Source of the DNA: a virus
Strand: one strand, 5' to 3'
IMG/VR virus record: IMGVR_UViG_3300048577_000559
DNA length: 64,000 nucleotides
The notes below the pieces were generated by a model that worked only from the letters and a program-made list of their open reading frames with translations, was not told the DNA's origin and made no database searches. Positions 35,853 through 60,294 of the stretch are shown here, piece by piece. Each line of letters starts with the position of its first letter. The stretch's first letter is position 1. A program made the translations under genes and the position numbers.

Positions 35853-35890
35853 CTCCAGATTCACGGCCGGTTTACGATCTCCCAGCGGAG
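35853..35890 (+). promoter_or_regulatory. Bipartite motif copy A: CTCCAGA-N16-GATCTCCCAGCGGAG.
   Basis: Exact match of both half-sites with a 16-nt spacer, 33 nt upstream of the ATG of the 35923 gene. Confidence 0.5.
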
Positions 35891-35922
35891 TGACTGTCAT
35901 TGCTTTCGTGTAAGAACCTATC

Positions 35923-37617
35923 ATGCAGCCCTTCTTCGAGCAGAACAACCTGAGCCTGTATTGCGGCAACTGCCTCGACGTGCTCGCCACGCTCCCCGAG
36001 GCGTCCGTGGATTACGTCGTGACAGACCCACCCTACCTTCTCAACTTTATGGAGAAGGATTGGGACGCTGCTGGCGGCGACATCCCAACAAGCGAGTTGG
36101 TATTTCGGTCCTGGTTCGCCGGTTTGGTTGCCGGGGAGGCGTGCTTCCGAATCCACCGTGAAAAGGACGGAACCTACTACGCTTGTGAGTTCAACATCAA
36201 GATGCGTGCCGATGAAGGCCCGCTGCTGCGGGCGTTAGCTCGGCGCATCGAAGCAGGGAATGTGCAGGACATTCCGGCTGAGTCGCGCGCTGTGAATAGT
36301 GGACCAGCCGTGAAGTGGGTTGTCCACTCCCGCGAGGATTGCTGGAAGATCGCCCGCTTGTTGGACGGCACGCCACTCTATGCGAAGAAGCAACGTGAAT
36401 ACGATCTGTGGCGCAGAGCCCTGAACGTCTGGACGACAACGCCGCGTGGCAACCGTTGGTGTGGTCCGCGCGACAATTCGGCAATGGAATCCTTGTGGGA
36501 GGAGATGAAGACGCTGCGGCCGTTCGATCAGGACTTGGCTGATGGCGACTTCGATCCGCTGCGGCAACCGGATTACCTCTTCCACAATCGTTGGGCGAAA
36601 GCCTGCCTGCGCGTTGTGAAACCCGGCGGCCTCCTGCTGGCGTTTGGCGGTACACGCACCTATCACCGGCTGACTTGCGCAATCGAGGACGCCGGGTGGG
36701 AGATTCGGGACGCGCTGATGTGGCTCTATGGGCAGGGGATGCCCAAGTGCGGCGACATCGGCAAACTGATCGACAAGTCGAAAGGCGCGAAGCGCGAAAT
36801 CATCGGCGACAAGTTGGATCGTCCCGGCTACCACTTGCACGAAGGCAAGGGAAACGGGTGCTACGGCGGCGGCAACGGACTTCATGCCCCTGGCACGGAT
36901 GCTCGGCTTCGCGCCGCGCAGATAACGGCACCGGCGACTCCCGAGGGCGCGAAGTGGACCGGCTGGGCGATGGCGTTGAAGCCGGCCTGGGAGCCAATCG
37001 TCCTGGCGATGAAGCCGCTGGACGGCACGATTGCCCACAACGCCCTGACCTGGGGCGTGGCCGGCATGAACATTCAGGCTTCCCGCATCGGCAACGAGAG
37101 CACGATACGCACTCGCGGGGACAGCTTGACGGACGCCGGCTGGGCCAGCACGAACCGCTCGCCTCTGGGCGGGTCGGAATGCGGGCGATGGCCGGCGAAC
37201 TTACTGCTGGACGAGGAAGCGGCTGTTCAACTGGACACTCAAGCGGGCACGCTTACGAGCGGCACCAACTGCGTCCGCACGAAATCCGGCGACGGCTACC
37301 ACGGCCGTCTCGGTAAGGCGGGCGATGTGCAGATCAGCTACGGCGACTCCGGCGGAGCGAGCCGGTTTTTCTACTGTGCTAAAGCGACACGCACGGAGCG
37401 CGGGCCGGGCAACGACCATCCGACCGTTAAGCCCCTGGCCCTCATGGAGTACCTGTTGACGCTGCTCTCGACCCCGGATGGCGGCGTGATTCTGGACCCC
37501 TTCGCCGGCAGCGGCACCACGCTCTTGGCCGCCAAAAGCCTTGGCCGCCGTTGCATCGGCGTCGAGTTGACCGCACACAACTGCGAGATCGCCCGAGGGA
37601 GATTGCATGTCGCTTGA
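35923..37617 (+). CDS. DNA methyltransferase (N6A/N4C, beta class) with an embedded LAGLIDADG-like domain.
   Basis: Motif IV DPPY near the N-terminus, RVVKPGG downstream, and motif I DPFAGSGTT at the C-terminus. An insertion of about 180 aa contains WFAGLVAGEACF...GPLLRALARRIEAGNV...WKIARLLDGTPLYAKKQREYDLWRRAL, matching the LAGLIDADG homing-endonuclease pattern. Confidence 0.65.
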   Translation: MQPFFEQNNLSLYCGNCLDVLATLPEASVDYVVTDPPYLLNFMEKDWDAAGGDIPTSELVFRSWFAGLVAGEACFRIHREKDGTYYACEFNIKMRADEGPLLRALARRIEAGNVQDIPAESRAVNSGPAVKWVVHSREDCWKIARLLDGTPLYAKKQREYDLWRRALNVWTTTPRGNRWCGPRDNSAMESLWEEMKTLRPFDQDLADGDFDPLRQPDYLFHNRWAKACLRVVKPGGLLLAFGGTRTYHRLTCAIEDAGWEIRDALMWLYGQGMPKCGDIGKLIDKSKGAKREIIGDKLDRPGYHLHEGKGNGCYGGGNGLHAPGTDARLRAAQITAPATPEGAKWTGWAMALKPAWEPIVLAMKPLDGTIAHNALTWGVAGMNIQASRIGNESTIRTRGDSLTDAGWASTNRSPLGGSECGRWPANLLLDEEAAVQLDTQAGTLTSGTNCVRTKSGDGYHGRLGKAGDVQISYGDSGGASRFFYCAKATRTERGPGNDHPTVKPLALMEYLLTLLSTPDGGVILDPFAGSGTTLLAAKSLGRRCIGVELTAHNCEIARGRLHVA

Positions 37618-39643
37618 GTCCGTGAAAATCGAAGCCCAGACATCCAGCGGCACGCGGATTCGTGTGCCTGTGCTGTTGGAGAAGAAGGATGGCCGCATCT
37701 ACTTCTGGGACGGCAAGGTCGGCACGAAGACCCGCTACGGATTGATGTCGGAAGTCAAGGCCATGCGCGGCGCGCATTTCCACGGCTACGACGATGAGGG
37801 CGAGTACGCCAAGATCAAAGTGTGGTCCGTGGACGACTGCCAGCGCAACCGTTTCCAGATCGGCTATCTCTGCGGCGAGGATGTCTACGCCTGGTTTGAC
37901 CGCCCGCTTCTGCGTCACGAGTACCGGTCGCTGACGCGCGGCGGCGTACCGCAGACCTTCATGCCGCATCAGGCAGACCTGGCCGACGCCGGCCTGACGT
38001 ACCACTACCAGATATTCGGTGCCGAAATGGGCACCGGCAAGACCCTGGCCGCCCAGATGGTGATTGAGAAGTCGGGCGTCGATCTGGTGTGGTGGGCAGG
38101 CCCAAAGACCAGCATCCCAAACATCAAGCGCGAGTTCAAGCTGTGGGGCTTCCCCTTCGACCGCATCCAGGTCGAGTTCTTCACCTACGAGGGGCTAGTC
38201 CGCGTGATGGACGAGTGGGACGGTTCGCAGACCTTGCCTCGGTGCTTCGTGGCCGATGAATCGAGCCGGTGCAAGAACGACACCTCGCAACGCTCCAAAG
38301 CCTGCCAGAAGCTCGCGGACCTGATCCGCGCAGAGTATGGCCACGAGGGCTACGTGATCGAGATGTCTGGCACGCCGTCGCCGAAGACGCCATGCGACTG
38401 GTGGAGCCAGTGCGAGATTGCCTGGCCGGGCTTCTTGAAAGAGGGCAGCCGCAGGGCGATGGAAGAACGGCTGGCCTTCATGGTCGAGCAGCAGTTCGAT
38501 GCCGGCAAGTTCAAGAAGCGGATCGGCTGGAAGGACGACGAACGGAAATGCGCCCAGTGCGGAGAGGCATTCGAGGAGGGACCGCACGAGTTGGATGGCC
38601 TAACGGAACCTGATGACTACCACAAGTTCGTCCCGAGCACGAACGAAGTTGCCTATCTCTACGACCGGCTCAAAGGGCTGGTCGTCATCAAACACAAGAA
38701 GGACTGCCTGCAACTGCCCGAGAAGCGATACCGCAAGATCGTCTGCAAACCGACCGCCAGCACCTTGCGCGTAGCCGAGGCCCTTGTCAGCGCCGCCCCC
38801 AATGCCGTCACCGGCATGACTCTGCTGCGGGAATTGAGCGACGGATTCCAGTACCGCGAACAGCAGGATGGTGTAACGAAATGCACGCATTGCACGGACG
38901 GCACGGCAGCGGAATGGGTGGACCCGGACGATCCCGAGGCCGCCTACCAGGCCATCGACCTGCTAGACCCAGAGTTGAAGGCCCGGTTAGTCAAGCAGAC
39001 CGTTCCTTGCCCGGCGTGCGGCGGCAAGCGGGAAGTACCGAGGATGGTCCGCGTGACACGGGAAGTCCCGTGCCCGAAGGACGCCGCCCTGAAGATGCTT
39101 CTGGACGAGAACGAGGAAGTCGGGCGGCTGGTGATTTTCGCCGGCTTCACGGGTTCCGTGGATCGCATCATCAGGCTGTGCCTCAAGGAAAAGTGGGACG
39201 TGGTGCGGTGCGACCAGGGGAACTTCCAAGTGTTCCGTGCCAAGAGCGACAGCCCGGATGGCACGCTGGCGACCGAGGAAGAGCCGCTGGATTACTGGGC
39301 AAATGTGGAGGGCCACGGAAAGGTTGCCTTCGTGGCCAACCCCGAGTCGGGCGGAATGAGCTTGACGTTGGTGGAGGCCCGTATGGCGGTGTACTGGTCC
39401 AACAGTTGGAAGCCCGAATACCGCGTGCAAAGCGAGGACCGCATCCATCGCAAGGGCATGGACGAGAACCTGGGATGCACCATTGTGGACCTTATCCATC
39501 TGCCGAGCGACAGCCGCGTGCTCGACGTGATTCGCGCCAACCGGAAGTTGGAGCTAATGACGATGGGCGAAATCCTTGAGGGCGTCGATTGGAAGGACGC
39601 TGGCGACGACGGCGAAATGTCGGTGGAGGAAGTGACGCCGTGA
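37607..39643 (+). CDS. SNF2-family helicase.
   Basis: Walker A GAEMGTGKT, DExx box FVADESSRCKN, and C-terminal helicase motifs (SGGMSLTL, QSEDRIHRKG). A Cys-rich insertion is also present. Confidence 0.7.
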   Translation: MSLESVKIEAQTSSGTRIRVPVLLEKKDGRIYFWDGKVGTKTRYGLMSEVKAMRGAHFHGYDDEGEYAKIKVWSVDDCQRNRFQIGYLCGEDVYAWFDRPLLRHEYRSLTRGGVPQTFMPHQADLADAGLTYHYQIFGAEMGTGKTLAAQMVIEKSGVDLVWWAGPKTSIPNIKREFKLWGFPFDRIQVEFFTYEGLVRVMDEWDGSQTLPRCFVADESSRCKNDTSQRSKACQKLADLIRAEYGHEGYVIEMSGTPSPKTPCDWWSQCEIAWPGFLKEGSRRAMEERLAFMVEQQFDAGKFKKRIGWKDDERKCAQCGEAFEEGPHELDGLTEPDDYHKFVPSTNEVAYLYDRLKGLVVIKHKKDCLQLPEKRYRKIVCKPTASTLRVAEALVSAAPNAVTGMTLLRELSDGFQYREQQDGVTKCTHCTDGTAAEWVDPDDPEAAYQAIDLLDPELKARLVKQTVPCPACGGKREVPRMVRVTREVPCPKDAALKMLLDENEEVGRLVIFAGFTGSVDRIIRLCLKEKWDVVRCDQGNFQVFRAKSDSPDGTLATEEEPLDYWANVEGHGKVAFVANPESGGMSLTLVEARMAVYWSNSWKPEYRVQSEDRIHRKGMDENLGCTIVDLIHLPSDSRVLDVIRANRKLELMTMGEILEGVDWKDAGDDGEMSVEEVTP

Positions 39644-40005: not shown

Positions 40006-40041
40006 TCTGCAAGACCTTTTCTAACCCCTGGAGTTGCAACG

Positions 40042-43066: not shown

Positions 43067-43397
43067 GCTGGACCAGTTTTACGACCTGCTGCGGCTTGTC
43101 GCGCACAAAGACCCGTGGAGCGAGCAGGTGGAGTTCATGCTGCTTCACCACGTCAGCGGCAAGCCGCGAGCAGTCTGCGGCCCGCTGCAATTCGTCGAGA
43201 TTCCTGAAGGTGCGCAGGTCAACCCGACTTTCTGCCTCCACGGCCCCGAGGCCCAGGAACTAATGGACATGCTCTGGAACTGCGGGCTGCGCCCCACCCA
43301 GGGCGAGAGCAGCGCCGGGCAACTGGATGCCGTGGAACGTCACTTGGCCGATATGCGGGCCATCGCCTTCAACAAGCTGGAGATCCAACCGTGCTGA
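43059..43397 (+). CDS. Hypothetical protein.
   Basis: 112-aa ORF MRKLDQFYDLLRLVAHKDPW. Confidence 0.35.
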   Translation: MRKLDQFYDLLRLVAHKDPWSEQVEFMLLHHVSGKPRAVCGPLQFVEIPEGAQVNPTFCLHGPEAQELMDMLWNCGLRPTQGESSAGQLDAVERHLADMRAIAFNKLEIQPC

Positions 43398-43636
43398 GCA
43401 AATTGTGCTGGTGTTTCTGGCAACTTTTCCCTTGCACCTACCGGACCTTCTACGGCGACGAGTACGGCCGAATCCACTTTGCCGTGTGGAAGATGTGGTT
43501 CGGCCGGTGCTACCGGGTCAACGACGTGATCGTGGACACCTTCACCGCTGCATTGGACAGCACCCTGCGTCTCTTGGACGCGCTGTGTGCGGCCAACCGA
43601 ACCCGCGAGTGCTGCGGAGAGTGCCGCAGCAAATAG
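43391..43636 (+). CDS. Small Cys-rich protein.
   Basis: 81 aa with a GTG start. CWCFWQLFPC and C-terminal CCGECRSK. Confidence 0.3.
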   Translation: MLSKLCWCFWQLFPCTYRTFYGDEYGRIHFAVWKMWFGRCYRVNDVIVDTFTAALDSTLRLLDALCAANRTRECCGECRSK

Positions 43637-43660
43637 CCCCTTCATCAACAGGAAACACCC

Positions 43661-43888
43661 ATGCCCGCCGACAACCTGCGCTACCCTGAGTTGCCCGAGG
43701 ATCGGGATGACGACTTCGAGGGTGAAGACGATGAGTGGGACGACGACTTCGCGGACGAAGACGACCTCGACGAAGACGATCCGTACTTTGACGACGACGA
43801 TGATCTCGATGACGACGAGTGGGAGGACGAAGACGACGACTGGGACGACGAAGACGAGGAGGACGAGGAGGACGAGTACGGAGCATAG
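43661..43888 (+). CDS. Hyperacidic small protein (DNA-mimic-like, candidate anti-restriction).
   Basis: 75 aa, almost entirely D/E with interspersed W/F/Y (DDEWDDDFADEDDLDEDDPYFDDDDDLDDDEWEDEDDDWDDEDEEDEEDEY). Confidence 0.5.
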   Translation: MPADNLRYPELPEDRDDDFEGEDDEWDDDFADEDDLDEDDPYFDDDDDLDDDEWEDEDDDWDDEDEEDEEDEYGA

Positions 43889-43950: not shown

Positions 43951-44023
43951 TGTGGCGTAGTTCAGTTGGCAGAGCGGGTGCCTGTTGAGCACCGGGTCGC
44001 TGGTTCGAGTCCAGCCGCTACAG
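43951..44023 (+). tRNA. tRNA-Asn (anticodon GTT).
   Basis: Manual cloverleaf: acceptor TGTGGCG/CGCTACA, D-stem GTTC/GAGC, anticodon stem GGTGC/GCACC with loop CTGTTGA, T-arm GCTGG-TTCGAGT-CCAGC, discriminator G. Confidence 0.75.
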
Positions 44024-44044
44024 CCTCAATCTTGGAGACAGCCA

Positions 44045-44845
44045 ATGCCTATCTTCTGTGTGAGTGACCTGCATCTGTGCGACCGAGGCTACCGCGACAA
44101 CTTCGCCGTGGAAGGCCGCGAGGCCCGCTTCCACAGGTTCCTGGACTACGTGGAGGCCGAAGGCGGCCTACTGTATGTCCTGGGCGACCTGTTCGATTGG
44201 TGGCAAGTGAACCTGAGTCGGTCGATTCGTGCCTATCAAGACCTGCTGGCACGCTTGGCTCACCTCGGATCGCTGGGGGCCTTGTGGGTGGTCGGCAACC
44301 ACGATAACGCTTTGACCGATTTCGTCGGCAGCAACATCAAATTGCAGGGCCTCACTTTGCCCGCAATGTCCAGGGCCTTCGAGGCGACCATCGGCGGCCG
44401 GCAGTTCGCCTTTCTCCACGGCCACGAGTCCGACCCGTATTGCCGCGACGCCAACCCTGGCACCGGCGAGATTACGGCAATCATTTCCGGGCTGCTGGAA
44501 GACCGCAACCGTGGGCCGTTTTCGACGAATCATCATGCCGTGGAAGACCAGTTCGTCGGCACGTTGGAAGGGGCCTTGATCCTCTGGCGGAAGTTGACCC
44601 TCCAGCACGGCCGCATGGATGAAATGCTCGACGGCGTGGAAGCGTATCGCAAGGAGGCCGGGGCCGACGTGGTGGTCTACGGTCACACGCACGAGCCGGG
44701 CTGCATCGGCGACTACCACTTCAACACCGGCACCTGGGCAAGGACGAACGATACCTTCGTGCGGATCAACGACGACGGCGATGCAGCCGTCTGGGAGTGG
44801 CGGCACGATAACCGGCCTGTGTTGTTCTCCCGTGTATTGCGATGA
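44045..44845 (+). CDS. Calcineurin-like metallophosphoesterase.
   Basis: Motifs VSDLHL, GDLFD, GNHD, GHTH. Confidence 0.7.
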   Translation: MPIFCVSDLHLCDRGYRDNFAVEGREARFHRFLDYVEAEGGLLYVLGDLFDWWQVNLSRSIRAYQDLLARLAHLGSLGALWVVGNHDNALTDFVGSNIKLQGLTLPAMSRAFEATIGGRQFAFLHGHESDPYCRDANPGTGEITAIISGLLEDRNRGPFSTNHHAVEDQFVGTLEGALILWRKLTLQHGRMDEMLDGVEAYRKEAGADVVVYGHTHEPGCIGDYHFNTGTWARTNDTFVRINDDGDAAVWEWRHDNRPVLFSRVLR

Positions 44846-45666
44846 AGCCGCTGGAACAGTACCAGGCGTATCCCGTCCCGGCGGCGACCATCTACTGTGA
44901 TGCCACCTTCAACTGTCGTGGCGAGTTCACGCTGCAATCCGTCAAAGAACTGGCTGAGAGCATCGCCCAGGCAGGGCGGCTGATCTGCCCGGTCGCCGTG
45001 CAACCCTGGGCGCAAGAATCTGGCTGCCAATACCGCCTGATCGTTGGGCACCGCCGCTTCCGGGCCGTGACCGAGTTCCTGCGATGGATGGAGATACCGG
45101 CCTACGTCTGCGAGGGTTTGAGCGACCATGAAGCCCGGATGCTGAACCTGGTCGAGAACCTGCACCGCAAGAGCCTGAACATCCTGGAAGAGGCCCGTGC
45201 GATTCAGAACCTTTATCCCAACGGTGCGAGCGTGCGGGAGGCGGCCCGCGAGCTAAAGCGGGACACGCGATGGGTCTGGGTCCGCGTGCGGCTGTTGCGG
45301 ATGCCCGAGGCCATTCAGCAGAAGGCCGCCGCTGGCCTGCTCTCGCAGTGGAACCTGGACACGCTGGCTGGCATCGAGTCACTCGACGAGCAGATCGCGG
45401 CTGCCGACAAGATCGCGGAAGCACGGCAGCGCGGCAAGGGAAAGTTCCTGCCGGGTCTTGCCAGGACGTATAAACGCCGCCGAAGTGTCCGTCCGCGCGA
45501 AGAGATCAACCGCATGATCGAACGGATGTTGGCCGTTGGTATCAACGGCTTGCCGCCCCGCGTGGCCGCGTGGTGCGCGGGTCAGGTCTCCGACGAGGTA
45601 TTGCTGAAAGAAATCGAGGCGGCGACTCCAGAAAGCACGACAAATCCCGATCTCCCAGCGGAGTGA
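44842..45666 (+). CDS. ParB-like nuclease domain protein.
   Basis: LIVGHRRFRA (ParB box II GxRR) and a helix-rich C-terminus. Confidence 0.6.
   Translation: MKPLEQYQAYPVPAATIYCDATFNCRGEFTLQSVKELAESIAQAGRLICPVAVQPWAQESGCQYRLIVGHRRFRAVTEFLRWMEIPAYVCEGLSDHEARMLNLVENLHRKSLNILEEARAIQNLYPNGASVREAARELKRDTRWVWVRVRLLRMPEAIQQKAAAGLLSQWNLDTLAGIESLDEQIAAADKIAEARQRGKGKFLPGLARTYKRRRSVRPREEINRMIERMLAVGINGLPPRVAAWCAGQVSDEVLLKEIEAATPESTTNPDLPAE
45626..45663 (+). promoter_or_regulatory. Bipartite motif copy B: CTCCAGA-N16-GATCTCCCAGCGGAG.
   Basis: Exact half-sites with a 16-nt spacer. Located within the 3' end of the ParB-like gene, 9 nt before the 45673 ATG. Confidence 0.45.
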
Positions 45667-48528: not shown

Positions 48529-48926
48529 TGGGCGACATCCGGCGGCCAAAACACAGCCAAGAGTGGCACATCCAGCAAGCGCTGATTGCCTTCCTCAAGA
48601 TTCGAGGCTGGCACGTCGAGCGGATGATCGGCAATGCCTTTCAAATGGGCGTGCCCGATCTGTTCATCGCACACCCGAAATGGGGACAGCGTTGGATCGA
48701 CGTGAAGCGACCAGGCAAGAACTACAGCTTCACCAAGGCCCAAAAGCTGAAATGGCCCGTGTGGGAAGCCTTCGGCATCGGCATCTGGATACTCACTGCC
48801 GCCACACAAGAAGAATATGACAAGCTGTTCGCGCCACCCAACTGGCGCGCCTACTGGAAAGCGTCGTGGGGTCAGGTTCCTGACATCGACGCCCTGCTGG
48901 ACGAGCTAGACCGCGAAGGCTGGTAG
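48528..48926 (+). CDS. VRR-NUC (PD-(D/E)xK) nuclease domain protein.
   Basis: GVPDLFIAH..WIDVKRPG..FTKAQ matches the VRR-NUC signature. GTG start overlapping the polymerase stop. Confidence 0.55.
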   Translation: MGDIRRPKHSQEWHIQQALIAFLKIRGWHVERMIGNAFQMGVPDLFIAHPKWGQRWIDVKRPGKNYSFTKAQKLKWPVWEAFGIGIWILTAATQEEYDKLFAPPNWRAYWKASWGQVPDIDALLDELDREGW

Positions 48927-48979: not shown

Positions 48980-49477
48980 ATGGAACTGCAACAACGCCCC
49001 GAACCGTGGATGTGTATGCCTCTGGCCTTCGCAATGGCCTTGGACACGCCCGTCGCCGACCTGCTCGCGGCCATCGGCCATGACGGCAGCGAGATCGTCT
49101 TCCCCAATCTGCCCGAGCCGCTGTGCCGACGCTGTTTCCACATCCAAGAGCTAATCCAAGTCGCCCTGGCTCGCGCCTTTGCCGTCACGCCGGTGGAACT
49201 GTTCCCCGTCCTACAACCCACGGAAGGCGGGCCACATAAGGCGGTGCTCTATGCGGACAACAACTGGCGACGGTTCGAGGAGACGATCCGGGCGAGTCGC
49301 GGCGTGATTGACGGCACCGGCGCACGCTTCGGCCACACAGTCGCCTACGACCACGGCCACATCTACGACCCCAAGGGGTCGGCCTACGACTACTCCCGCC
49401 TCGCCTGCGAGGCCCACCAGTTCTACACCCGCTGTGCCTGGCGGATTGATCCCGTTGGAGAACGCACCTGTGAGTAA
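48980..49477 (+). CDS. Putative papain-like cysteine peptidase (C39-like).
   Basis: Cys in EPWMCMPLAFAMAL and His in GHTVAYDHGHIYDP. Confidence 0.3.
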   Translation: MELQQRPEPWMCMPLAFAMALDTPVADLLAAIGHDGSEIVFPNLPEPLCRRCFHIQELIQVALARAFAVTPVELFPVLQPTEGGPHKAVLYADNNWRRFEETIRASRGVIDGTGARFGHTVAYDHGHIYDPKGSAYDYSRLACEAHQFYTRCAWRIDPVGERTCE

Positions 49478-50153
49478 CCAGTACAACGAGAAGCTAGTTG
49501 CCGGTCTGCACCATGCGACCAACGACGAGACATGGACTGCTGAGAAGAACGCCGACTTGCATCCGCTCGTTGCGGCGGGCGACAAGGAAGCTCGTGAGAC
49601 CATGATTAACGGCAACATGCCGTTAGTGCTCTCGAAGGTGGAAGCCTTCATCCGTTCGTTCCCAAGTATCGCACATCTCCGCGATGATTTGGTCAGTGCT
49701 GGATGCGTCGGCCTGGTCAAAGCTGTCAACAAAATGGCTCGCGGCGAGGGGCCGCGCAACACCGATCCCGTTGCGCCAACTGATTTCATTGGCATGTGGA
49801 TCAATCGTGAACTTGGGGAATTGGTTGAGGCAGAACATACCATTCGATTGCCTCCTCGTTCCAAGTATCGCGCCCGTGCGAATGGACAAGAGCTAGAAGC
49901 GCCCGAGGTCTGCAACGTCATTCCCGAACGGTTCGCGGTTCCCTCCTGCGAAGAGGAACTGGAAATCCGCGATCTGATCGACTCGTGTTGCGTCTGTGAA
50001 GACGAGCGGACGTTTGTTGCCATGCGGGAAGCGGGCTACACCCTCGTCGAGATTGGGGCCGCCATTGGCAAATCGCGCATGGCCACACAACGCATGGCCA
50101 AGCAGATTGACGCCCGCGTGCAGCGCAAACTGGAGGCCCTGCGCAACGCATGA
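49470..50153 (+). CDS. Sigma-70-family sigma factor (phage-encoded, ECF-like size).
   Basis: A region-2-like segment, and a region-4 HTH YTLVEIGAAIGKSRMATQRMAKQI near the C-terminus. GTG start, 227 aa. Confidence 0.5.
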   Translation: MSNQYNEKLVAGLHHATNDETWTAEKNADLHPLVAAGDKEARETMINGNMPLVLSKVEAFIRSFPSIAHLRDDLVSAGCVGLVKAVNKMARGEGPRNTDPVAPTDFIGMWINRELGELVEAEHTIRLPPRSKYRARANGQELEAPEVCNVIPERFAVPSCEEELEIRDLIDSCCVCEDERTFVAMREAGYTLVEIGAAIGKSRMATQRMAKQIDARVQRKLEALRNA

Positions 50154-50758
50154 TCCGACGCATCTTCTTAGACCTGGACGACGTGTGCAATACGCTGGCA
50201 CCTTTCGTGCTGCACTCGGTCGGTTGCGGCATCGGTCCAAGCGACTACGCTCGCTACCCGCGTGAACACGGCTTCAACATCTCGGCCGCCGCCAACGCCA
50301 TGTTGGGTGAGCCGCGCTACACCCCGGCCACGCTCTGGGCGTCAATCCCGCGTTCCCTGTGGGTCAAGGTGCCCGAATCGGACTTCTTCGCTTGGCTGTT
50401 GGACACCTGCGCTCAAGCCGTTGGCCGCGAGAACGTGTGCATCGCCACCTCGCCCACGAAAGACCCCGATTGCCTGGCGGGAAAGCTGGAGTGGATTCAC
50501 GACCACTTTCCCGAGTGGATGCACCGGCAGTACGCCATCACGCCCCGGAAGCATCTTCTCGCTCGTCCTGACTCCCTGCTGATCGACGACTACAGCGAAA
50601 ACATCGAGCGGTTCGAGGCCCACGGCGGCTACGCCATCACCGTCCCAAGGCCCTGGAATGAACATTGGGCTTCAGACCCTCGCGGGTACTTGGAAGAAAA
50701 ACTCGCGGTGGCACTCCAGAAGTCACCCGGATTTACGATCTCCCAGCGGAGAGACTGA
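50150..50758 (+). CDS. 5'(3')-deoxyribonucleotidase-like HAD hydrolase (NT5C family).
   Basis: N-terminal DxD motif IFLDLDDV, as in NT5C and phage dNMP nucleotidases. Confidence 0.5.
   Translation: MIRRIFLDLDDVCNTLAPFVLHSVGCGIGPSDYARYPREHGFNISAAANAMLGEPRYTPATLWASIPRSLWVKVPESDFFAWLLDTCAQAVGRENVCIATSPTKDPDCLAGKLEWIHDHFPEWMHRQYAITPRKHLLARPDSLLIDDYSENIERFEAHGGYAITVPRPWNEHWASDPRGYLEEKLAVALQKSPGFTISQRRD
50714..50751 (+). promoter_or_regulatory. Bipartite motif copy C: CTCCAGA-N16-GATCTCCCAGCGGAG.
   Basis: Exact half-sites with a 16-nt spacer, within the 3' end of the NT5C-like gene and 31 nt before ATG 50783. Confidence 0.45.
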
Positions 50759-50782
50759 CAAATCTTTTGAGGTGACACGTAC

Positions 50783-50949
50783 ATGCACGTCGTCGAGTTC
50801 ATTCCGGCCGATTGGTTGGAGCGGGCCGCTTGCTGGCCCGGCCTGACGGTCTACAGCCGGCCGGTGGCAGTCGAGCGACGGGTCCGCACGCGGCGGACAG
50901 CCGACGTGGAATTGCTGCTCCGATCCCTGCTTTCGGTACAGGTGCAATG
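50783..50949 (+). CDS. Small ORF (55 aa) downstream of motif copy C, possibly a leader peptide.
   Basis: ATG 50783, MHVVEFIPADWLERAACWPGL. Not in the supplied track. Confidence 0.2.
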
Positions 50950-52092
50950 ATGGCGCGACGCGAGTTTCTGCAATTGGCCGATCACTACGACCCGCGCAAG
51001 CATAGCGTGGCGGGTTGGTTTGTATCGGAAAAGCTAGATGGCACTCGCTGCTTTTGGGACGGCGGACTGACCCGTGGCCTGCCCACTGAGGAGGTGCCCT
51101 GGGCCTCGATCATCGACCCCAAGACCGGCCAGAGGAAGGCCAAGATCAAGCCCGTAGCGACCGGCCTGTGGAGCCGCTACGGCAATCCAATCATGGCCCC
51201 CGACTGGTGGCTCAATCGGCTGCCGGCTTGCCCACTGGACGGCGAGTTGTGGGCTGGACGGGGCAAGTTCCAACTTTGCCGGAGCATCTGCGGCGGCGAC
51301 ACCCCGGACGAGCGATTCAGCCAGATCGTCTTCGCGGTGTACTCCACACCGCCGCTCGCCGCGATCTTTAGCACCGGCGAGATCAAGAACGCCAACATGG
51401 TCTGCAACGTCGATTACCTCACGATTGAAGCGTGGATCAGACAGCGCCTCAATTCCCGAGGCGAGCGATTCGAGGGCGTCCCTGTTCCCAAGCGCTGCCT
51501 GGGCGACCATTTCAAGTTCCTGACCGCCGGCCAGACATTCGGCAAGGAAGTGGCCGTGCTCAGCGAGGCCCTGGAGAACACGGATGCCTCGATTTGCTAC
51601 CTCCACCGGCAAACAAAGTTGATCGACATTCCGGCCGAGGCCAACGACCAGGTGGAATCCTACTTGCAACGGGTGCTCGACCAGGGCGGCGAGGGCGTTG
51701 TGATTCGCAGCCCCGACGCCATTTGGATGCCGAAGCGCCACCGCAGCATCCTCAAGTACAAACCGTTCCAGGACGCCGAGGCCCGTGTGGTTGGCTTCAC
51801 CAGCGGCCGTGAGACGAACAAGGGCAGCCGGCTCTTGGGCAAGATCGGTGCCCTGATCGTGGACTACTGCGGCAAGCGATTGGAGCTAGCGGGCCTGACC
51901 GACACCGAGCGGGAATTCGCTGATCCGATGGCCCGCGATTGGGCCACCAACAACCCTGGCATCGACACTCCCTACTGGGTTGAAGGCAAGCAATTCAAGA
52001 AGGGCCAGATGGTCACGTTCAAGTACCGCGAACTGACCGACGACGGCGTTCCCAAAGAGGCGCGCTACTGGCGGCGGAGGGATTCCGAGTGA
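50947..52092 (+). CDS. ATP-dependent DNA ligase.
   Basis: Adenylation motif I SEKLDGTRC (KxDG). The length of about 381 aa fits a minimal phage ligase with OB domain. Confidence 0.75.
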   Translation: MMARREFLQLADHYDPRKHSVAGWFVSEKLDGTRCFWDGGLTRGLPTEEVPWASIIDPKTGQRKAKIKPVATGLWSRYGNPIMAPDWWLNRLPACPLDGELWAGRGKFQLCRSICGGDTPDERFSQIVFAVYSTPPLAAIFSTGEIKNANMVCNVDYLTIEAWIRQRLNSRGERFEGVPVPKRCLGDHFKFLTAGQTFGKEVAVLSEALENTDASICYLHRQTKLIDIPAEANDQVESYLQRVLDQGGEGVVIRSPDAIWMPKRHRSILKYKPFQDAEARVVGFTSGRETNKGSRLLGKIGALIVDYCGKRLELAGLTDTEREFADPMARDWATNNPGIDTPYWVEGKQFKKGQMVTFKYRELTDDGVPKEARYWRRRDSE

Positions 52093-52189: not shown

Positions 52190-53212
52190 GTGAGTCAAGC
52201 CGCAGAACTATCGCGTGTTCAAGCCAACATCGGCAGTCTCGTGGAAACGTTCGTGCGGGACCGCTGGCAAACTGCGCAGCCGCGTTTCTACATCCAGGAC
52301 TTGCACGACTACATCGCCGCCCGGACACAGATTGCCCCGGCCTCCCCGGATCGCATCCTCCGGCAGCTTCGGCTGGAAGGCAAGTTCGACTACAAGATCG
52401 TCAACCGCTCGGACTCCTGCTACGAGATCACGGCAGTCAATTCCGGCCCGAAAGGCAAGCCAGCGAAAGCCTCGGCACTCAAACGCAACCCGAAACAGGA
52501 AGGCACGCCGTTCTTCGACTGCATCCCGCAGATCGGGCCTTGCCCCATCGGCTGCAACCAGTGCTTCTACAACCGGCCGGGGGCCTACTACGTGCCCATC
52601 GACCGCCCACACGTCCCGACGCCCGAAGAAGTGGGCGACGGCATCGTGCGGATGAACTGCGGAAACGACAGCAACAACCAGCGCGACCTGGTGATCGAGA
52701 CCGCCAAGCGGTATCGGCGCTATTTCTTCAACACGTCGATCCTCCGCTTCGATTTTCCCGGCCCGGTCGTGCTGACGGCCAATCCCAAGGAGGAGCAAGA
52801 GGGCAGCTACGCCATGCCGAACCGGCACGGCGACGACTGGCACTCGCCGGACGCCAACCTGATGTTCGTGCGCCTTCGCACGTCGGCAACCAATCTGCGG
52901 CTGGTGGATCAGGCCGTGGCTGCCTGGACCGCCGCCCAGGTGCCGGTGGTGATTACCTTCATGGCCTACTACGACCATGAGCCGCAGGTGCCCGCCGACC
53001 TGCTCTTCAAGGGCGAGTGCTACCAGTGGCGTGTGCGGCACATCAATTCCTACTGGTGTCCGACCAAGGAGTTCATGCGCTGGGTCATGTACCGTTACGC
53101 CGGCAATCGGCTGGTGAGCATGTGCAGCAGCATCAACTCGGCCTACTGCCGGGACTGCCGCAACTGCGAGAGCCACTATCTGCAAACCATCAAACGCTTG
53201 AAGGGTGAATAA
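52190..53212 (+). CDS. Hypothetical protein with CxxxCxxC motif (possible radical-SAM-like or Fe-S protein).
   Basis: GPCPIGCNQCFYN C-x3-C-x2-C motif. GTG start, 340 aa. Confidence 0.3.
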   Translation: MSQAAELSRVQANIGSLVETFVRDRWQTAQPRFYIQDLHDYIAARTQIAPASPDRILRQLRLEGKFDYKIVNRSDSCYEITAVNSGPKGKPAKASALKRNPKQEGTPFFDCIPQIGPCPIGCNQCFYNRPGAYYVPIDRPHVPTPEEVGDGIVRMNCGNDSNNQRDLVIETAKRYRRYFFNTSILRFDFPGPVVLTANPKEEQEGSYAMPNRHGDDWHSPDANLMFVRLRTSATNLRLVDQAVAAWTAAQVPVVITFMAYYDHEPQVPADLLFKGECYQWRVRHINSYWCPTKEFMRWVMYRYAGNRLVSMCSSINSAYCRDCRNCESHYLQTIKRLKGE

Positions 53213-54696: not shown

Positions 54697-55340
54697 GCTA
54701 CACCCGCGAACAGATTGCCGCTGCCCTGGACTTGGCCGTCTTGAAGCCGACCGCCACGGCCGCCGACGTGCGCGCCGCTTGTGCCCTGGCCGTCGCCCGG
54801 CAGATCAAGTCGGTCTGCGTTGCCCCAGTCTGGGTGCCGATGGCGAGCGACTTGTACGGCAACGTGTGCGCCATCATTGCCTTTCCCCACGGAAACACGC
54901 TGCCCGAGGCCAAGTACGCCGAGGCCCTAGCGGCAATGGACTGTGGGGCGAAGGAACTTGACGTGGCGGTCAACTACGGCCGGTTTCTCGACAGCGGCCA
55001 CCACGACGCCTTCTGGGACATCGCCGCAATCGTCAAGGCGGCCCACCCACGCGGCGTGCTCGTCAAGGCGATTCTGGAAACCTGCTATTACACGCCGGAC
55101 CAAATCCGCGAAGCCTGCCGCCTGTGTGTCAAGAGTGGTGTGGACTTCGTGAAGACATCGACCGGCTTCGGACCCGGCGGGGCCACGCCCGAAGCCGTCA
55201 AGACCATGTTGGAAGCCGTCAATGGCGAGGCCCAAGTGAAGGCCAGCGGCGGCATCAAGACCTACTCCGACGCCGCCCGCTACCTGGACCTGGGCTGCAC
55301 TCGCCTCGGCTCGTCCCGCTACTTGGAGCTGCTGCCGTGA
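54693..55340 (+). CDS. deoC: Deoxyribose-phosphate aldolase.
   Basis: DLAVLKPTAT, SVCVAP, Schiff-base Lys context DFVKTSTGF and VKASGGI, typical of DeoC. Confidence 0.75.
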   Translation: MSYTREQIAAALDLAVLKPTATAADVRAACALAVARQIKSVCVAPVWVPMASDLYGNVCAIIAFPHGNTLPEAKYAEALAAMDCGAKELDVAVNYGRFLDSGHHDAFWDIAAIVKAAHPRGVLVKAILETCYYTPDQIREACRLCVKSGVDFVKTSTGFGPGGATPEAVKTMLEAVNGEAQVKASGGIKTYSDAARYLDLGCTRLGSSRYLELLP

Positions 55341-55351
55341 AGAAGTCCAAG

Positions 55352-55951
55352 ATGAACCGACTGGCCTGGAACCGGGGCTACCTCTGCGGCGCAATGGACC
55401 GCGTGACCGATGGCGGCGTCGGCTGGCGTCAAGACCTGATCGAGAGCCTGAAGGACTTGAACATTCTCTGGCTCGACCCGACGCGCAAGCCAATCGACAT
55501 AGGCGTGGAAGACCTGGAGAACCGCGCCCTGCGCCACAAGGCAAAGCGGGCCGGCGACTTCGAGTTCGTCCGCAACCAGATGAAGCAGATTCGTCCCGTC
55601 GATCTGCGGATGGTGGACATCTGCGACTTCCTCGTGGTGAACCTCGATCTGCAAGTCCACGCCACGGGGACATACGAAGAACTGTTCTGGGCGAACCGGA
55701 TGAAGAAGCCGGTCCTGGTGCGCGTGGAGCAGGGAATCGAACACACCCCGGACTGGCTCTTCGGCACGTTGCCCTTCGAGATGATCTTCTCGACGTGGGA
55801 CGAAGTGAAGACCTATCTGCGGCACGTCGCCCACGATCCGGTGATCGACCGGCTCAACCGCTGGTACTTCTTCAACTGGATGGGCGAGAACTGCATCGAG
55901 TCAGCCAATCATGGCGTCGGCCGCAAGATCGTCAGGAGGGTGAAGAAGTGA
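55352..55951 (+). CDS. Nucleoside 2-deoxyribosyltransferase / dNMP N-glycosidase-like protein (NDT/DNPH1 family).
   Basis: N-terminal GYLCGAMD resembles the NDT-family YLAGP motif. About 200 aa. Confidence 0.45.
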   Translation: MNRLAWNRGYLCGAMDRVTDGGVGWRQDLIESLKDLNILWLDPTRKPIDIGVEDLENRALRHKAKRAGDFEFVRNQMKQIRPVDLRMVDICDFLVVNLDLQVHATGTYEELFWANRMKKPVLVRVEQGIEHTPDWLFGTLPFEMIFSTWDEVKTYLRHVAHDPVIDRLNRWYFFNWMGENCIESANHGVGRKIVRRVKK

Positions 55952-56163: not shown

Positions 56164-56297
56164 GCCGGGGAGGGAAGCCAGCGAGATTTCGGTAGTAGCT
56201 GGCCGTGGGTGGCGATCAAGGGCGCGTGGAGTACGGGCGATTATACCGACGACACGGAAACGCGCAGTACCCGGCTTTGGAAATCTTGGAGAACGAC

Positions 56298-56483: not shown

Positions 56484-56484
56484 C

Positions 56485-57489: not shown

Positions 57490-57492
57490 GCC

Positions 57493-57753
57493 ATGCCCAT
57501 TCCGCTGTTTCTACTCGACCGCATCAAGGCATCGGCTATGAGCGGCGAGCAGGTGGCCGATGCCCTCGTCAAGCTGGCGCAGGTGGCCGACAAATCCGGG
57601 ATCGACGCCTGCGCCGTCAACCTCGAATACGTTACGGACGACGACAAGCTGGTCGCCGGCGACCTGATCCCGACCATCACATTCTCCCTGAAGCGACAGG
57701 AGAGCGCCGTGGAGCCGGTGCCGGCGGAGTCAATCGACGTGGAGCCGCAATGA
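57493..57753 (+). CDS. Hypothetical protein.
   Basis: 86-aa ORF. Confidence 0.3.
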   Translation: MPIPLFLLDRIKASAMSGEQVADALVKLAQVADKSGIDACAVNLEYVTDDDKLVAGDLIPTITFSLKRQESAVEPVPAESIDVEPQ

Positions 57754-58037
57754 ACCTCTTGCTTTTCACTCTCGGCGTCGTGGGCATGACCCACATCATC
57801 GTGGACGGTGAGATCAGTGAGCCGGTCTACGAATGGATCGAGCCGCGCCTGCCCGTGGTGGCTCGCGTCATGGATTGCTACCAGTGCGCCGGCTTCTGGT
57901 GCGGCCTTGCCTTGGGACTGGCTCTGCTGAGCTACCGGCCCTGTATCGTGTTTGCGGCCGGCTGTGCCGGCAGCTTCCTCGCGCAACTCGGCTGGCTCGT
58001 GCTCGACTCACTGGAACGCTACGCGAAGGGCAAGTGA
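57750..58037 (+). CDS. Membrane protein.
   Basis: 95 aa with two hydrophobic helices and a CYQC motif. Confidence 0.35.
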   Translation: MNLLLFTLGVVGMTHIIVDGEISEPVYEWIEPRLPVVARVMDCYQCAGFWCGLALGLALLSYRPCIVFAAGCAGSFLAQLGWLVLDSLERYAKGK

Positions 58038-58039
58038 TG

Positions 58040-58183
58040 GATGACCAAGAAGGCTGGATTACCGGATTCGCTTCATGCCGAGTATGCAGCCACACCTGGG
58101 TCGCCGTGGTGCCCGCGGACGGAGAGCTATCGAACCTTGAGTGCCCGGAATGCCATAGCATGTCGGGCGAACTGACGGAGTGA
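58040..58183 (+). CDS. Zinc-ribbon protein (48 aa).
   Basis: CRVC...CPEC pairs. Confidence 0.3.
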   Translation, partial: DDQEGWITGFASCRVCSHTWVAVVPADGELSNLECPECHSMSGELTE

Positions 58184-58186
58184 TGT

Positions 58187-58435
58187 ATGCCGTGGTTGAT
58201 CGTCGTCATCTTTGCGTTTCTCTGCGGGTTCCTCATGGACATCGTATGGACGCTGTGTGTCGATGCCGTGACCTGTAGAAAGCCGCTGACGGCGGCCAAC
58301 TTCAGCGCCTTGCTCTACCTTTGCACCATCGTCTCAACGGTCTTGATTGTGGAGAAGTGCATTGCCGCCGTGGTGGCCTACATCATCGGCGGCTGGATCG
58401 GCACCTATGTGGTCGTCAAGCGAAGGCGGCCATGA
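58187..58435 (+). CDS. Small membrane protein (2-3 TM).
   Basis: Hydrophobic 82-aa ORF. Confidence 0.35.
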   Translation: MPWLIVVIFAFLCGFLMDIVWTLCVDAVTCRKPLTAANFSALLYLCTIVSTVLIVEKCIAAVVAYIIGGWIGTYVVVKRRRP

Positions 58436-58686
58436 AGATTCTCGTCTACCACGGCAGACATGGCGACGACTATTTCCTCGTCGATACGCCCGAACGACTG
58501 CAAGCAGCCATGCGTCAGTTGTTCAAGCAACTGGACGACTGGCACTGCTACGACCGCGATGAAGAAGGCGTGATCGAGGCGCGAGCCGGCGACGCGCGTG
58601 CAATCCGTTGGCTGCTCGACCGCCATAACGGCTACGAGTACGAAGGCTGGAACATCATCGAGGCCATTGATCCATGCACACCCTGA
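58432..58686 (+). CDS. Hypothetical protein.
   Basis: 84-aa ORF starting MKILVYHGRHGDD. Confidence 0.3.
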   Translation: MKILVYHGRHGDDYFLVDTPERLQAAMRQLFKQLDDWHCYDRDEEGVIEARAGDARAIRWLLDRHNGYEYEGWNIIEAIDPCTP

Positions 58687-59426
58687 TTAACGCCGACTGT
58701 CTCGATTACCTCAACGGCAACCGCCAGACTTGGACCACGATCTTGGCGGACCCGCCGGACAACATCGGCCTGAGCTACCAGAGCTACAAGGACAGACTGC
58801 CCGACCACCAATACGTGGACCTGCTGGAGACCTGGTTGCACCTGTTTGTTCACAGGGCCAAGACCGTTTGGTTCAGCTTCAACGCGAAGTGGACCTTCGA
58901 GGTTGGCCGCATCGTCGCCGAGATCGTCCGGCGGACCAGCGGCTTGGAAGCCAAGCCCTGCGTCCAGACTTTCACCTTCGGGCAACATTGCCACCACGAC
59001 CTGGGCAACAACCACCGGCCGCTCTGGCGGCTGCGGTGGTGTGACGCCCCGCTGCGTCCCGATGCGATCCGCGTGCCGAGTTGGCGGCAGGAGAACGGCG
59101 ACAAGCGGGCTGACCCGCGCGGGCGGGTGCCCGGCGACGTGTTCGACTTCACTCGCGTCGTGGGCAACAGCAAGCAGCGCCGTCCGTGGCACCCGACGCA
59201 ACTCAACGAGGGGCTGGTCGAGCGGTGCGTGAAGTTCACCACGCCAGAAGGCGAGTCAGTCCTAGACCCCTTCGGCGGCACGGGCACGACGCTCCGCGTT
59301 TGCCGGCCGCTGGGCTACCCCTGCACCCTAATCGAGATCGACCGGGGCTACTGCGACAAGATCGTCGAAGAGCACGGCATGAAGCGGTCGGAGTACATCC
59401 ATCGCGCCTTGTGGGAGGTCGAATGA
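58674..59426 (+). CDS. DNA methyltransferase (beta class, variant motif IV DPPD).
   Basis: ILADPPDN near the N-terminus, and motif I DPFGGTGTT near the C-terminus. Confidence 0.6.
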   Translation: MHTLINADCLDYLNGNRQTWTTILADPPDNIGLSYQSYKDRLPDHQYVDLLETWLHLFVHRAKTVWFSFNAKWTFEVGRIVAEIVRRTSGLEAKPCVQTFTFGQHCHHDLGNNHRPLWRLRWCDAPLRPDAIRVPSWRQENGDKRADPRGRVPGDVFDFTRVVGNSKQRRPWHPTQLNEGLVERCVKFTTPEGESVLDPFGGTGTTLRVCRPLGYPCTLIEIDRGYCDKIVEEHGMKRSEYIHRALWEVE

Positions 59427-59662
59427 GCGTCCATTGCACCCGTTGCGACGGCACCGGCTTCCTCAACCTCCATCAGGTGGACGAGAGGGCGCTAGACCGT
59501 TTCGACGAAACCGGCGACCACCAGGTCATCCTCGATTGGATCGCGGCCAACTCCTGCCACGACGTTTCTGTGTGCGACTGCTGCGGCGACGGAGAGGCGT
59601 GGCACGGCACGCCTGGAGAACACCACCCCGAAGACGCTGAACCGTGGCCGGAGTGCTACTGA
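59423..59662 (+). CDS. Small Cys-rich protein.
   Basis: CTRCDGTG..CHDVSVCDCCGDGEAWHG. Confidence 0.35.
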   Translation: MSVHCTRCDGTGFLNLHQVDERALDRFDETGDHQVILDWIAANSCHDVSVCDCCGDGEAWHGTPGEHHPEDAEPWPECY

Positions 59663-60294
59663 TGCTCCGCATCACCATCGAGCTAGCACCCTGGGGCGAC
59701 GAGTCCTGCGCCAAGGTTATCGCCACCGGCAAGATCGTCAACACCGGCACCGGCAGTCCCACCCAGGGCAGCTACCGCATCGAACTGTGCGATGCCGCCG
59801 GCCGCAAGTGGAGAAGCGGAACCATCGCCGGTTTCCCCGAAAGCGGCTGCTCGCGTGGGACTTGCTCAATCGGGCCTTGGGAAAACTTGTCGGCAGCCAA
59901 AATCCCACTCCAGATTCACGGGCGTTTTGCGATCTCCCAGCGGAGAGGCAACACCAACCGACATAGGGAGCCACCCATGAGAACGCTAGTGCCCAATCTG
60001 AACGCCATCCTCAAGCGCCATGAGATTCACCCGAAGTTCTGGCCGGAGTTTCACAGCATGGTGGAAGACCGGCAACTGCCCAGTAAAGAACTGTGGACCC
60101 GCATGAACTACGTGGCCAACTACCGGGCCGCCCGCAGCGAGATAGCGGCCGAGTTGTCCAAAGGGTGGGAAAAGCAATTTCCGCCCGACGACTACGAGGT
60201 GCCCGAAGGCTACGACTTCGACATGCCGGCCGAGTACGAATCGTTGACTCCCGAAGACATCGCACTGGCGACATCGGGCGGGTGCGCCGTCTGA
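59662..60294 (+). CDS. Hypothetical protein. The ORF carries bipartite motif copy D in-frame, so it may be two genes (second start at 59977).
   Basis: Continuous ORF of 210 aa. An internal ATG at 59977 follows GGGAG, 31 nt after the motif. Confidence 0.3.
   Translation: MLRITIELAPWGDESCAKVIATGKIVNTGTGSPTQGSYRIELCDAAGRKWRSGTIAGFPESGCSRGTCSIGPWENLSAAKIPLQIHGRFAISQRRGNTNRHREPPMRTLVPNLNAILKRHEIHPKFWPEFHSMVEDRQLPSKELWTRMNYVANYRAARSEIAAELSKGWEKQFPPDDYEVPEGYDFDMPAEYESLTPEDIALATSGGCAV
59908..59945 (+). promoter_or_regulatory. Bipartite motif copy D: CTCCAGA-N16-GATCTCCCAGCGGAG.
   Basis: Exact half-sites with a 16-nt spacer. The extended similarity to copy A covers ATTCACGG.CG.TTT.CGATCTCCCAGCGGAG. 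Confidence 0.45.

Follow-up and report, generated by a model that had tools for sequence, protein, structure and literature searches.

A lineage-specific bipartite repeat at the heads of four replication gene units in an uncultivated siphovirus: candidate promoters and their possible readers

Gene organization around the repeated element

The IMG/VR virus record IMGVR_UViG_3300048577_000559, analysed here as one stretch of 64,000 nucleotides (nt) that is called the window throughout, carries four copies of a bipartite element, CTCCAGA-N16-GATCTCCCAGCGGAG, each of them upstream of a gene start in the replication part of the genome, and their interpretation as candidate phage-specific promoters is weighed below. 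The window is a siphovirus-type genome of ~62% G+C, with the genes for the terminase, portal, major head protein and tape measure at 3-17 kilobases (kb), a leftward block encoding a P4-type primase, an RNase T-like exonuclease and a MazZ-like deoxynucleoside triphosphate (dNTP) diphosphohydrolase, and a rightward block from ~33.4 kb. The latter opens with a ParB-like gene (33387-34343, + strand; domains ParB_N and HTH_ParB), here called ParB1 and regarded as an alternative candidate reader of the element, and includes two conserved unknown genes, a methyltransferase (MTase) with a LAGLIDADG insert, a helicase, an exonuclease with an N-terminal helix-turn-helix (HTH), a metallophosphatase, a second ParB-like gene, PolA, a sigma-like gene, an NT5C-like nucleotidase, a DNA ligase and a second MTase. 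The four copies of the element split this rightward block of ~28 kb into units that begin near 35.9, 45.7, 50.8 and 60.0 kb. No close cultured relative was found by megablast and tblastn against 50,697 phage records, and therefore no annotated homologue could be used.

The pattern has exactly four matches in the window, at 35853-35890 (copy A), 45626-45663 (copy B), 50714-50751 (copy C) and 59908-59945 (copy D), all on the + strand. Copy A begins 2 nt past the TAG of the open reading frame (ORF) 35257-35850, which codes for a protein of 197 amino acids (aa), and ends 32 nt before ATG 35923 of the MTase with the LAGLIDADG insert, the helicase gene being the next one. Copy B sits in the last codons (..DLPAE*) of the second ParB-like gene (44842-45666, +; ParB_N and HTH_ParB), called ParB2, which is likewise an alternative candidate reader and whose C-terminal tail is dictated by the copy; its end lies 9 nt before ATG 45673 of a 119-aa ORF that precedes PolA, and the GGAG that terminates it, being at that distance from the ATG, likely doubles as the ribosome-binding site of this ORF. 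Copy C, embedded in the last codons (..ISQRRD*) of the NT5C-like gene 50150-50758, is followed after 31 nt by ATG 50783. With this ATG begins a conserved 55-codon ORF (50783-50950; MHVVEFIP...), which the gene callers give as a 54-aa gene in relatives. Copy D ends 31 nt before ATG 59977 of a 105-aa ORF with AGGGAG as its ribosome-binding site.

The distances to the start codons given in a preliminary description of this DNA are borne out by these measurements (31-32 nt for A, C and D, and 9 nt for B), as is its observation that two copies are embedded in the ends of the upstream genes, the overlaps of B and C being in different frames. The gene start at ATG 50783 claimed there also stands, but the gene in question is not the ligase, which starts at 50947 through an ATGA overlap and not at the TTG at 50812. 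Each gene that follows copy A, C or D is supplied with a ribosome-binding site of its own, 20-25 nt beyond the motif. The leader after copy A (35891-35922, +; tGACTGTCATTGCTTTCGTG...) resembles the leader after copy C (50752-50782, +; aGACTGACAAATCTTTTGAGG...), and a conserved leader ahead of the start codon is common to A- and C-type copies: it reads CTATCrCAyCTTTyG after copy A in other lineages, or takes the form of the box CTTTTGAG, which is kept in the C-type copies of all lineages examined.

Sequence and rarity of the element

With the two preceding bases included, the copies read CA-CTCCAGA-ttcacggccggtttac-GATCTCCCAGCGGAG (copy A, 35851-35890, +), GA-CTCCAGA-aagcacgacaaatccc-GATCTCCCAGCGGAG (copy B, 45624-45663, +), CA-CTCCAGA-agtcacccggatttac-GATCTCCCAGCGGAG (copy C, 50712-50751, +) and CA-CTCCAGA-ttcacgggcgttttgc-GATCTCCCAGCGGAG (copy D, 59906-59945, +), so that the core is somewhat longer than first read and may be written (C/G)A-CTCCAGA-N15-C-GATCTCCCAGCGGAG-(T/A)G. 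The spacer is exactly 16 nt long in all four copies. The two blocks are unrelated to one another in sequence, and the motif has no dyad symmetry, inverted repeat or direct-repeat structure. The four exact + strand copies with a fixed spacer, as they had been described at the outset, were recovered by the pattern scan, and the full pattern was matched 0 times in 100 dinucleotide-preserving shuffles; the 15-mer 3' block taken alone had 0 extra sites at up to 2 mismatches and three matches at 3 mismatches, the latter being at the level of chance. An origin of the motif by chance or low complexity is ruled out by the shuffles together with the mismatch scan.

A longer match between copies A and D had also been reported and amounts to 93% over 40 nt, while CAC stands at spacer positions 3-5 in A and D only, and is displaced by one base in B and C. 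The stated lack of the motif in the structural half of the genome was confirmed (0 copies in 1-28 kb). In a repeat search of the window the motif came out as the sole dispersed non-coding repeat family, all other repeats lying inside coding repeats. An A-rich tract upstream of the heptamer was not counted as an UP element, being partly coding and at no fixed distance from the heptamer (16-22 nt).

Conservation in the lineage and across the phage family

Three proteins were used to gather the loci of relatives: sigma, the 197-aa product encoded ahead of copy A, and the 119-aa product encoded after copy B. The relatives were compared as 20-kb contig slices. The motif search in related phages that the preliminary description had called for was carried out as exact-pattern scans of viral and metagenome collections, and gave matches only in closely related phage contigs, at the same four orthologous places. 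Within this lineage, in alignments of 4-7 distinct versions per copy, 0 of the 88 half-site columns vary, as against 10 of 64 in the spacer and 29 of 160 upstream. Gene conversion as the cause of the half-site invariance is ruled out, since the spacers of the four copies differ from one another. As judged from these alignments, every base of both blocks is shown to be under purifying selection.

In the more distant relatives, which are linked to metagenome-assembled genomes (MAGs) of Planctomycetota and whose sigma proteins are 34-65% identical, the same geometry is found at the same places, with a lineage-specific sequence. The architecture of the family consists of a heptamer [CG]TC[CT]A[AG]N, a spacer of 16 nt in nearly all copies, and a block of 15-16 nt, with 2-4 mutually matching copies per genome, and the orthologues of copy A were recovered in 19 lineages. 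Thus, the motif types of relatives include CTCCAGA-N16-GTCATAGCwGGTAGAG, CTCCAAA-N16-AGTCTATCCAGTGAGG, GTCTAAn-N16-GGCGyrTT.., CTCTAAC-N16-GATGTGGCAGAkGGAG and CTCyAAw-N16-GATTTCATTGTrG. Across the family, the 3' block often opens with GAT or GTC, carries T at position 5 almost without exception and is purine-rich at its end (TAGAG, GGAG or GAGG); in the B-type copies of relatives this purine-rich end is 5-9 nt ahead of the ATG and doubles as the ribosome-binding site. A faster evolution of the half-sites than of the spacer between lineages was not supported, the mean column entropy being 0.92 and 1.29-1.55 bits in the blocks vs 1.11 bits in the spacer; the blocks are therefore about as variable as the spacer at this level, and positive selection is not claimed.

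A protein-coding origin of the conservation is ruled out by the different frames of the B and C overlaps and by the C-terminal tail of ParB2, which is not conserved as protein: it varies in length and sequence between lineages, tracking the local motif and not a protein constraint. The geometry, which is kept at the same places in relatives while the sequence is lineage-specific, therefore marks a selected DNA-level signal at operon heads.

The sigma homologues found in genome bins belong to Planctomycetota MAGs, and two of these homologues are on contigs as long as 0.48 and 1.07 megabases (Mb); accordingly, the host is probably a planctomycete, as far as the binning can tell, and some of the relatives may be prophages.

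One relative is a mosaic with respect to the motif. In L019/L083 (IMGVR_UViG_3300024349_000326) the A and C copies are of the type GTTCCGA-N16-GATCTAT.., and the B copy is of the type of another lineage, L029 (CTCCAGA-N16-GTCATAGCTGGTAGAG), and came together with an L029-like recognition helix of ParB2.

The promoter interpretation

The motif is clearly functional, and on balance we lean towards reading the four copies as phage-specific promoters, of a lineage-specific "middle" class. A promoter fits their position and orientation, the fixed 16-nt spacing, the conservation within the lineage combined with divergence between lineages, and the lack of a hairpin, terminator or Rfam match; the start of transcription at the copies and the identity of the protein that reads them are what we infer from this pattern. 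The copies stand 9-32 nt before start codons on the + strand and are syntenic in relatives, and their spacing, the same in nearly all relatives, is in the range of ~16-18 base pairs (bp) that is fixed in sigma-dependent promoters. Of the original proposal of phage-specific promoters, the part that stands is a selected, co-oriented DNA-level signal at gene starts; the part that is not supported is a phage sigma factor reading both halves as -35 and -10, for the exchanges of the sigma-2 region described below leave the motif unchanged. The mismatch to the sigma-70 consensus that was pointed out there was borne out by a scan, which found no TTGACA-N17-TATAAT at the copies. Promoters of the sigma-70 consensus were not above chance in 28-64 kb, and no intrinsic terminators were found at the copies.

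According to the proposed mechanism, a phage-encoded specificity factor would direct the host core RNA polymerase to the four copies, with the CTCCAGA heptamer acting as a -35-like contact and the block 16 nt later (GATCTC...) as the -10-like and start-site region. The copies would thus be four cis-acting start signals that divide the ~28-kb module of replication, nucleotide metabolism and DNA modification into four transcription units.

The promoters of T7-type phages are one continuous block of ~23 bp read by a single-subunit RNA polymerase. The elements of the window are like them in the very high information content, in the identical copies at gene boundaries that overlap the ends of upstream genes, and in the lineage-specific sequence; they are unlike them in having two blocks with a free spacer, and in the window no gene for a single-subunit RNA polymerase was found, its large ORFs being the terminase, portal, capsid, tape measure, primase, helicase and PolA.

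Several features of the motif and of the sigma gene weigh against this interpretation. The information content, with at least 22 invariant bases, is far beyond what a sigma-dependent promoter typically needs, and the canonical A(-11)/T(-7) pattern is not present. The GGAG at the end of copy B, being likely a ribosome-binding site, constrains the possible position of the start site. On the analogy of SPO1 and T4, a sigma gene that is part of a middle-type module should rather drive late genes. A search upstream of the terminase region for a late promoter specific to the sigma factor returned only a family-wide hairpin, and nothing there tracks the sigma allele. The remaining points on this side come from natural recombinants and from the comparison of recognition helices, and are given with the sigma gene.

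The sigma-70-family gene as candidate reader

The leading single candidate for the reader is the sigma-70-family gene at 49470-50153 (+; 227 aa), although its candidacy is tentative and open to considerable doubt. On this proposal, which is nested in the promoter interpretation, the phage sigma itself would recognise CTCCAGA with its region 4 and the GATCTC... block with its region 2, and the four sites would be its own regulon. The presence of such a factor in the genome had been noted before and proved correct, though the protein is divergent: the ORF has no Pfam match, but matches the PHROG sigma family (E = 9e-9) and, over its region-2 part, NCBIfam SigF/G (E = 1e-10), and the profile of its family matches the solved structures of SigF, SigK, RpoS and RpoD (E = 2e-10 to 1e-6). 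Its score against TIGR02937 is 33.3 bits, below the cut-off of 42.9, and its C-terminal HTH-like segment aligns weakly to SigF region 4 (2.6 bits).

In favour of the sigma protein there are the sigma-type 7-N16 geometry of the sites, the region 2 and the C-terminal HTH-like segment of the gene product, and the occurrence of the motif as the sole repeated one in a genome that encodes a sigma factor. The gene is the only hypervariable one among the conserved genes of the module, with 54-65% identity between lineages vs 80-95% for its neighbours, and this hypervariability parallels the lineage specificity of the motif. Besides, the T at position 5, a ...AG.TAGRG tail and a region-2.3/2.4 helix WINRELG are common to many lineages, so that an exchange of the sigma-2 region could be tolerated.

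Against it stand two independent exchanges of the sigma-2 part in which no base of the motif has changed. In a recombinant sub-lineage (L060/L062), which has ~90% DNA identity to the window and exact copies B, C and D, the sigma protein is just 61-63% identical, the drop being limited to 49500-49950, that is, to the N-terminal/sigma-2 part, while sigma-4 stays with the backbone; this arrangement recurs in independent JGI and ENA assemblies and is therefore not a chimera. The genomes L103 and L028 are 88% identical and share the same motif, CTCCAAA-N16-AGTCTATC, and a near-same sigma-4, and their sigma-2 alleles are unrelated. In both pairs of genomes (~88-90% DNA identity) the identity falls to ~55-60% within the N-terminal/sigma-2 part only, which behaves as an exchangeable cassette in two independent cases. 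In the reverse direction, the recombinant and L020 have identical DNA-contact segments of sigma-2 with different 3' blocks (GATCTCCC vs GGCGyrTT). Nor is there a simple code that relates the region-4.2 helices to the heptamer: a helix like that of the window goes with GTCTAAA in L047, and a different one goes with CTCCAGA in L026. Accordingly, the table of region-2.4 and region-4.2 helices against the motif types gave no consistent code, and the promoter blocks do not co-vary with the recognition parts of the sigma protein, which also falls short of the curated family cut-offs. The sigma-2 domain, as far as the natural alleles indicate, does not set the lineage-specific bases of the motif, and the sigma protein could be the reader only if its sigma-2 reads a few family-wide positions, with another constraint acting on the rest.

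Among characterised systems, the nearest analogue is Salmonella phage 7-11, whose sigma factor gp47 reads eight late promoters of the form GTAAtg-N16-aCTA and is encoded inside the block served by these promoters; in the related phiEco32, the promoters of gp36 have similar genome positions and different sequences (PMC8948821). The window resembles these phages in a bipartite element with a 16-bp spacer, present in a handful of copies ahead of co-oriented blocks, and in a phage protein of the sigma-70 family with region 2 and a putative region 4 whose gene is inside the served block, here downstream of copy B, so that 7-11 also serves as a precedent for a sigma gene within its own regulon. Related phages likewise keep the positions and differ in the sequence. 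The differences are that the motif of the window is known from sequence alone, that, with 7 + 15 invariant bases, it is conserved over far longer blocks, that its copies head replication-type genes and not late genes, and that natural replacements of sigma-2 leave it unchanged.

In Bacillus phage SPO1, gp28 and gp33/34 redirect the host core polymerase to non-consensus pairs of -35 and -10 elements with 17-18-bp spacers, which are the middle and late promoters, and the sigma factor for one class is made in the preceding class. A non-consensus two-block element in a sigma-encoding phage is common to SPO1 and the window, where the link between the two is predicted from the DNA; unlike in SPO1, the sigma gene of the window is downstream of copy B.

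Readers other than the sigma protein

A gene-by-gene comparison over 26.9-60.3 kb found no other hypervariable gene matching the motif types besides sigma, and no specificity patch was found in the 245-, 197-, 165- and 119-aa proteins or in the HTH-exonuclease. The ORFs 28443-29033 (-), 48563-48820, 52190-53212 and 58674-59426 were excluded as readers, because they differ between genomes with the same motif.

The sites might instead be operators and not a promoter core, that is, asymmetric sites for lineage-specific regulators that repress or activate the four operons, although this is unlikely. The obvious candidate regulators are the two ParB-like HTH proteins, acting in the manner of KorB or VirB; an immunity repressor at stoperator-like sites in a temperate cycle would be another. 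A site rich in information that is strictly conserved inside a lineage but differs from lineage to lineage is the pattern of a repressor-operator pair, and the two ParB_N + HTH_ParB genes match the count of two different half-sites. Both ParB1 and ParB2 are moderately variable, with the variation concentrated in the HTH recognition helices, and among 16 lineage types no identical ParB1 helix was found with a different heptamer; the relation is not one-to-one and is confounded by phylogeny. The four-residue core of ParB1 (WIGA, WVRQ, WIRR), however, does occur with different heptamers, and ParB2 shows two conflicts, namely an identical helix with different 3' blocks in L015 and L023, and the L029-like helix of L019, where the A and C copies are of another type.

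The sites known for ParB, KorB and Noc are palindromic, unlike the present motif without dyad symmetry, for which the co-variation with ParB1 and ParB2 is, moreover, suggestive without being clean. Stoperators are single blocks of 13-14 bp in 20-30 copies that are bound by the immunity repressor, and those of the cluster A mycobacteriophages are asymmetric, co-oriented with transcription, intergenic and specific to the immunity group. The elements of the window share with the stoperators and with the KorB and VirB sites their dispersal near operon heads, and ParB-family HTH proteins are encoded in the same genome; they are just four in number and consist of two blocks, and neither a repressor nor an integrase was recognised among the genes of the window. 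The relatives in the 0.48-Mb and 1.07-Mb Planctomycetota contigs, which suggest prophages, would speak for a temperate cycle and so for operators.

It is rather improbable that, in a related way, the two blocks constitute a lineage-specific "address code" read by a factor other than sigma, the best guess being the ParB-like pair as operon-head regulators of the KorB/VirB kind. Such a code would diversify among co-occurring phages so that each of them controls its own replication operons, and the sigma-2 cassette would be shuffled for an unrelated reason.

An element acting at the level of RNA is quite improbable. The 3' block would in that case be a shared signal of the 5' leader or the inter-cistronic region. 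It might serve ribosome binding or standby, or be targeted by a phage translational repressor or by an endoribonuclease; it might also belong to a nut-like antitermination signal, with the heptamer as the boxA-like and the 3' block as the boxB-like part. The lambda nut sites have a boxA/boxB layout with a semi-conserved first box and a lineage-specific second one, which the present arrangement recalls. A Shine-Dalgarno-like purine run ends the 3' block in every lineage and is 5-9 nt before the ATG in B-type copies, but the genes at A, C and D have ribosome-binding sites of their own farther on, and the heptamer 23 nt upstream is equally strictly conserved. A small hairpin, TCTCC-CAGC-GGAGA, is possible in copies C and D, but an equivalent one is impossible in the 3' blocks of other lineages, the folding energy is not better than that of shuffles (z = 0.9, 1.6, -0.3 and -1.8), and the folds differ between the copies. 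A structured RNA or an Rfam family as the identity of the motif is ruled out by these scores and by the Rfam search, which gave no family match; a search of the window for the 15-mer 3' block found no complementary copy able to encode an antisense partner.

Finally, it is scarcely credible that the sites serve a DNA transaction, as strand-specific nick sites of the T5 or phiKMV-like kind, as targets of LAGLIDADG/HNH endonucleases or as recombination sites. For phiKMV-like phages a bipartite nick consensus has been reported (T5 has localized interruptions), which four long asymmetric sites oriented on a single strand resemble, a LAGLIDADG domain occurs in the MTase directly 3' of copy A, and the foreign B copy of L019 means that the sites can move by recombination. 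On the other side, neither nicking nor homing would call for a position at gene starts that is kept across deeply diverged lineages, the LAGLIDADG insert probably differs from lineage to lineage (49-67% coverage of the MTase), the sites are not at the borders of mobile DNA, and no assembly breaks or ends coincide with them.

Additional features of the genome

Several enzymes of nucleotide and base metabolism are encoded in the window. A MazZ-like dATP/dGTP diphosphohydrolase domain is present at 29941-30378 (-), and an NT5C-like nucleotidase, a nucleoside deoxyribosyltransferase-like protein and two N6/N4 MTases are found among the ORFs 50150-50758, 55124-55951, 35923-37617 and 58674-59426; relatives carry in addition the genes of MT-A70, a D12-class MTase and DeoC. 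This set of nucleotide enzymes and MTases suggests, from gene content, a modified-base or heavily methylated genome. The LAGLIDADG domain (residues 66-166) sits within the N6/N4 DNA methylase 35923-37617 and probably differs between lineages, given that relatives cover only part of the MTase, as stated above.

In the middle of the replication module, degenerate Asp/Glu-rich coding repeats (GAYGAYGAC... units) at 43327-43888 encode a highly acidic protein, which could be a DNA mimic, just 5' of a tRNA-Asn (GTT) gene at 43951-44025. Since the tRNA gene extends over the annotated start of the metallophosphatase ORF, the true start of this ORF is probably farther downstream. In the structural part, the box TGACCATYCGG and a hairpin GGCCGC-ccaa-GCGGCC, both family-wide, lie at ~1900-1981, ahead of the ORF 1982-2404, with compensatory changes in the stem in other lineages (CGGCTG..CAGCC, CCGCTG..CAGC), and could be a late regulatory or packaging signal. 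The ORF 21121-23625 (834 aa) is made up of degenerate 120/126-nt repeats and, therefore, is probably a repetitive tail fibre or decoration protein.

As regards the genome ends, the terminase gene lies 3056 nt in from the start of the window, and an independent contig of 86.7 kb, L114 (IMGVR_UViG_3300050333_000152), ends 3061 nt upstream of this gene; these matching ends hint at a fixed physical end of the genome there. On the right side, all similarity between two W-type contigs (W-type being the genomes that carry the exact motif) is gone ~1.2 kb past the end of the window, so that the region is taken for accessory or flanking DNA; no regulator gene was recognised at the right genome end. In the W-type contig L109, a reverse-transcriptase gene (RVT_1) is located at 18866-19903 (-), ~5.7 kb past the end of the window. 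The recombinant W-type phage L062 has a trio of adjacent tyrosine-recombinase genes at 188-3331, inserted at the position that corresponds to the helicase-to-exonuclease region of the window.

Implications for the phage family

No phage promoter described for Planctomycetota came up in the literature searched. If the four elements are promoters, they would give first access to the transcription programme of a widespread group of uncultivated siphoviruses of ~65 kb or larger, linked to Planctomycetota by MAG bins. A lesson of more general use is that a phage sigma factor and a repeated bipartite motif in one genome are insufficient to pair the two, as the recombinants argue against the simple pairing. 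The interest of the finding lies in the family as such, uncultivated and probably infecting planctomycetes, with many variants of one architecture and the exchange of a sigma-2 cassette. Its dozens of natural variants of one promoter architecture, together with the natural swaps of sigma domains, may be used for asking how promoter specificity is encoded, and are a possible source of orthogonal promoter-factor pairs.

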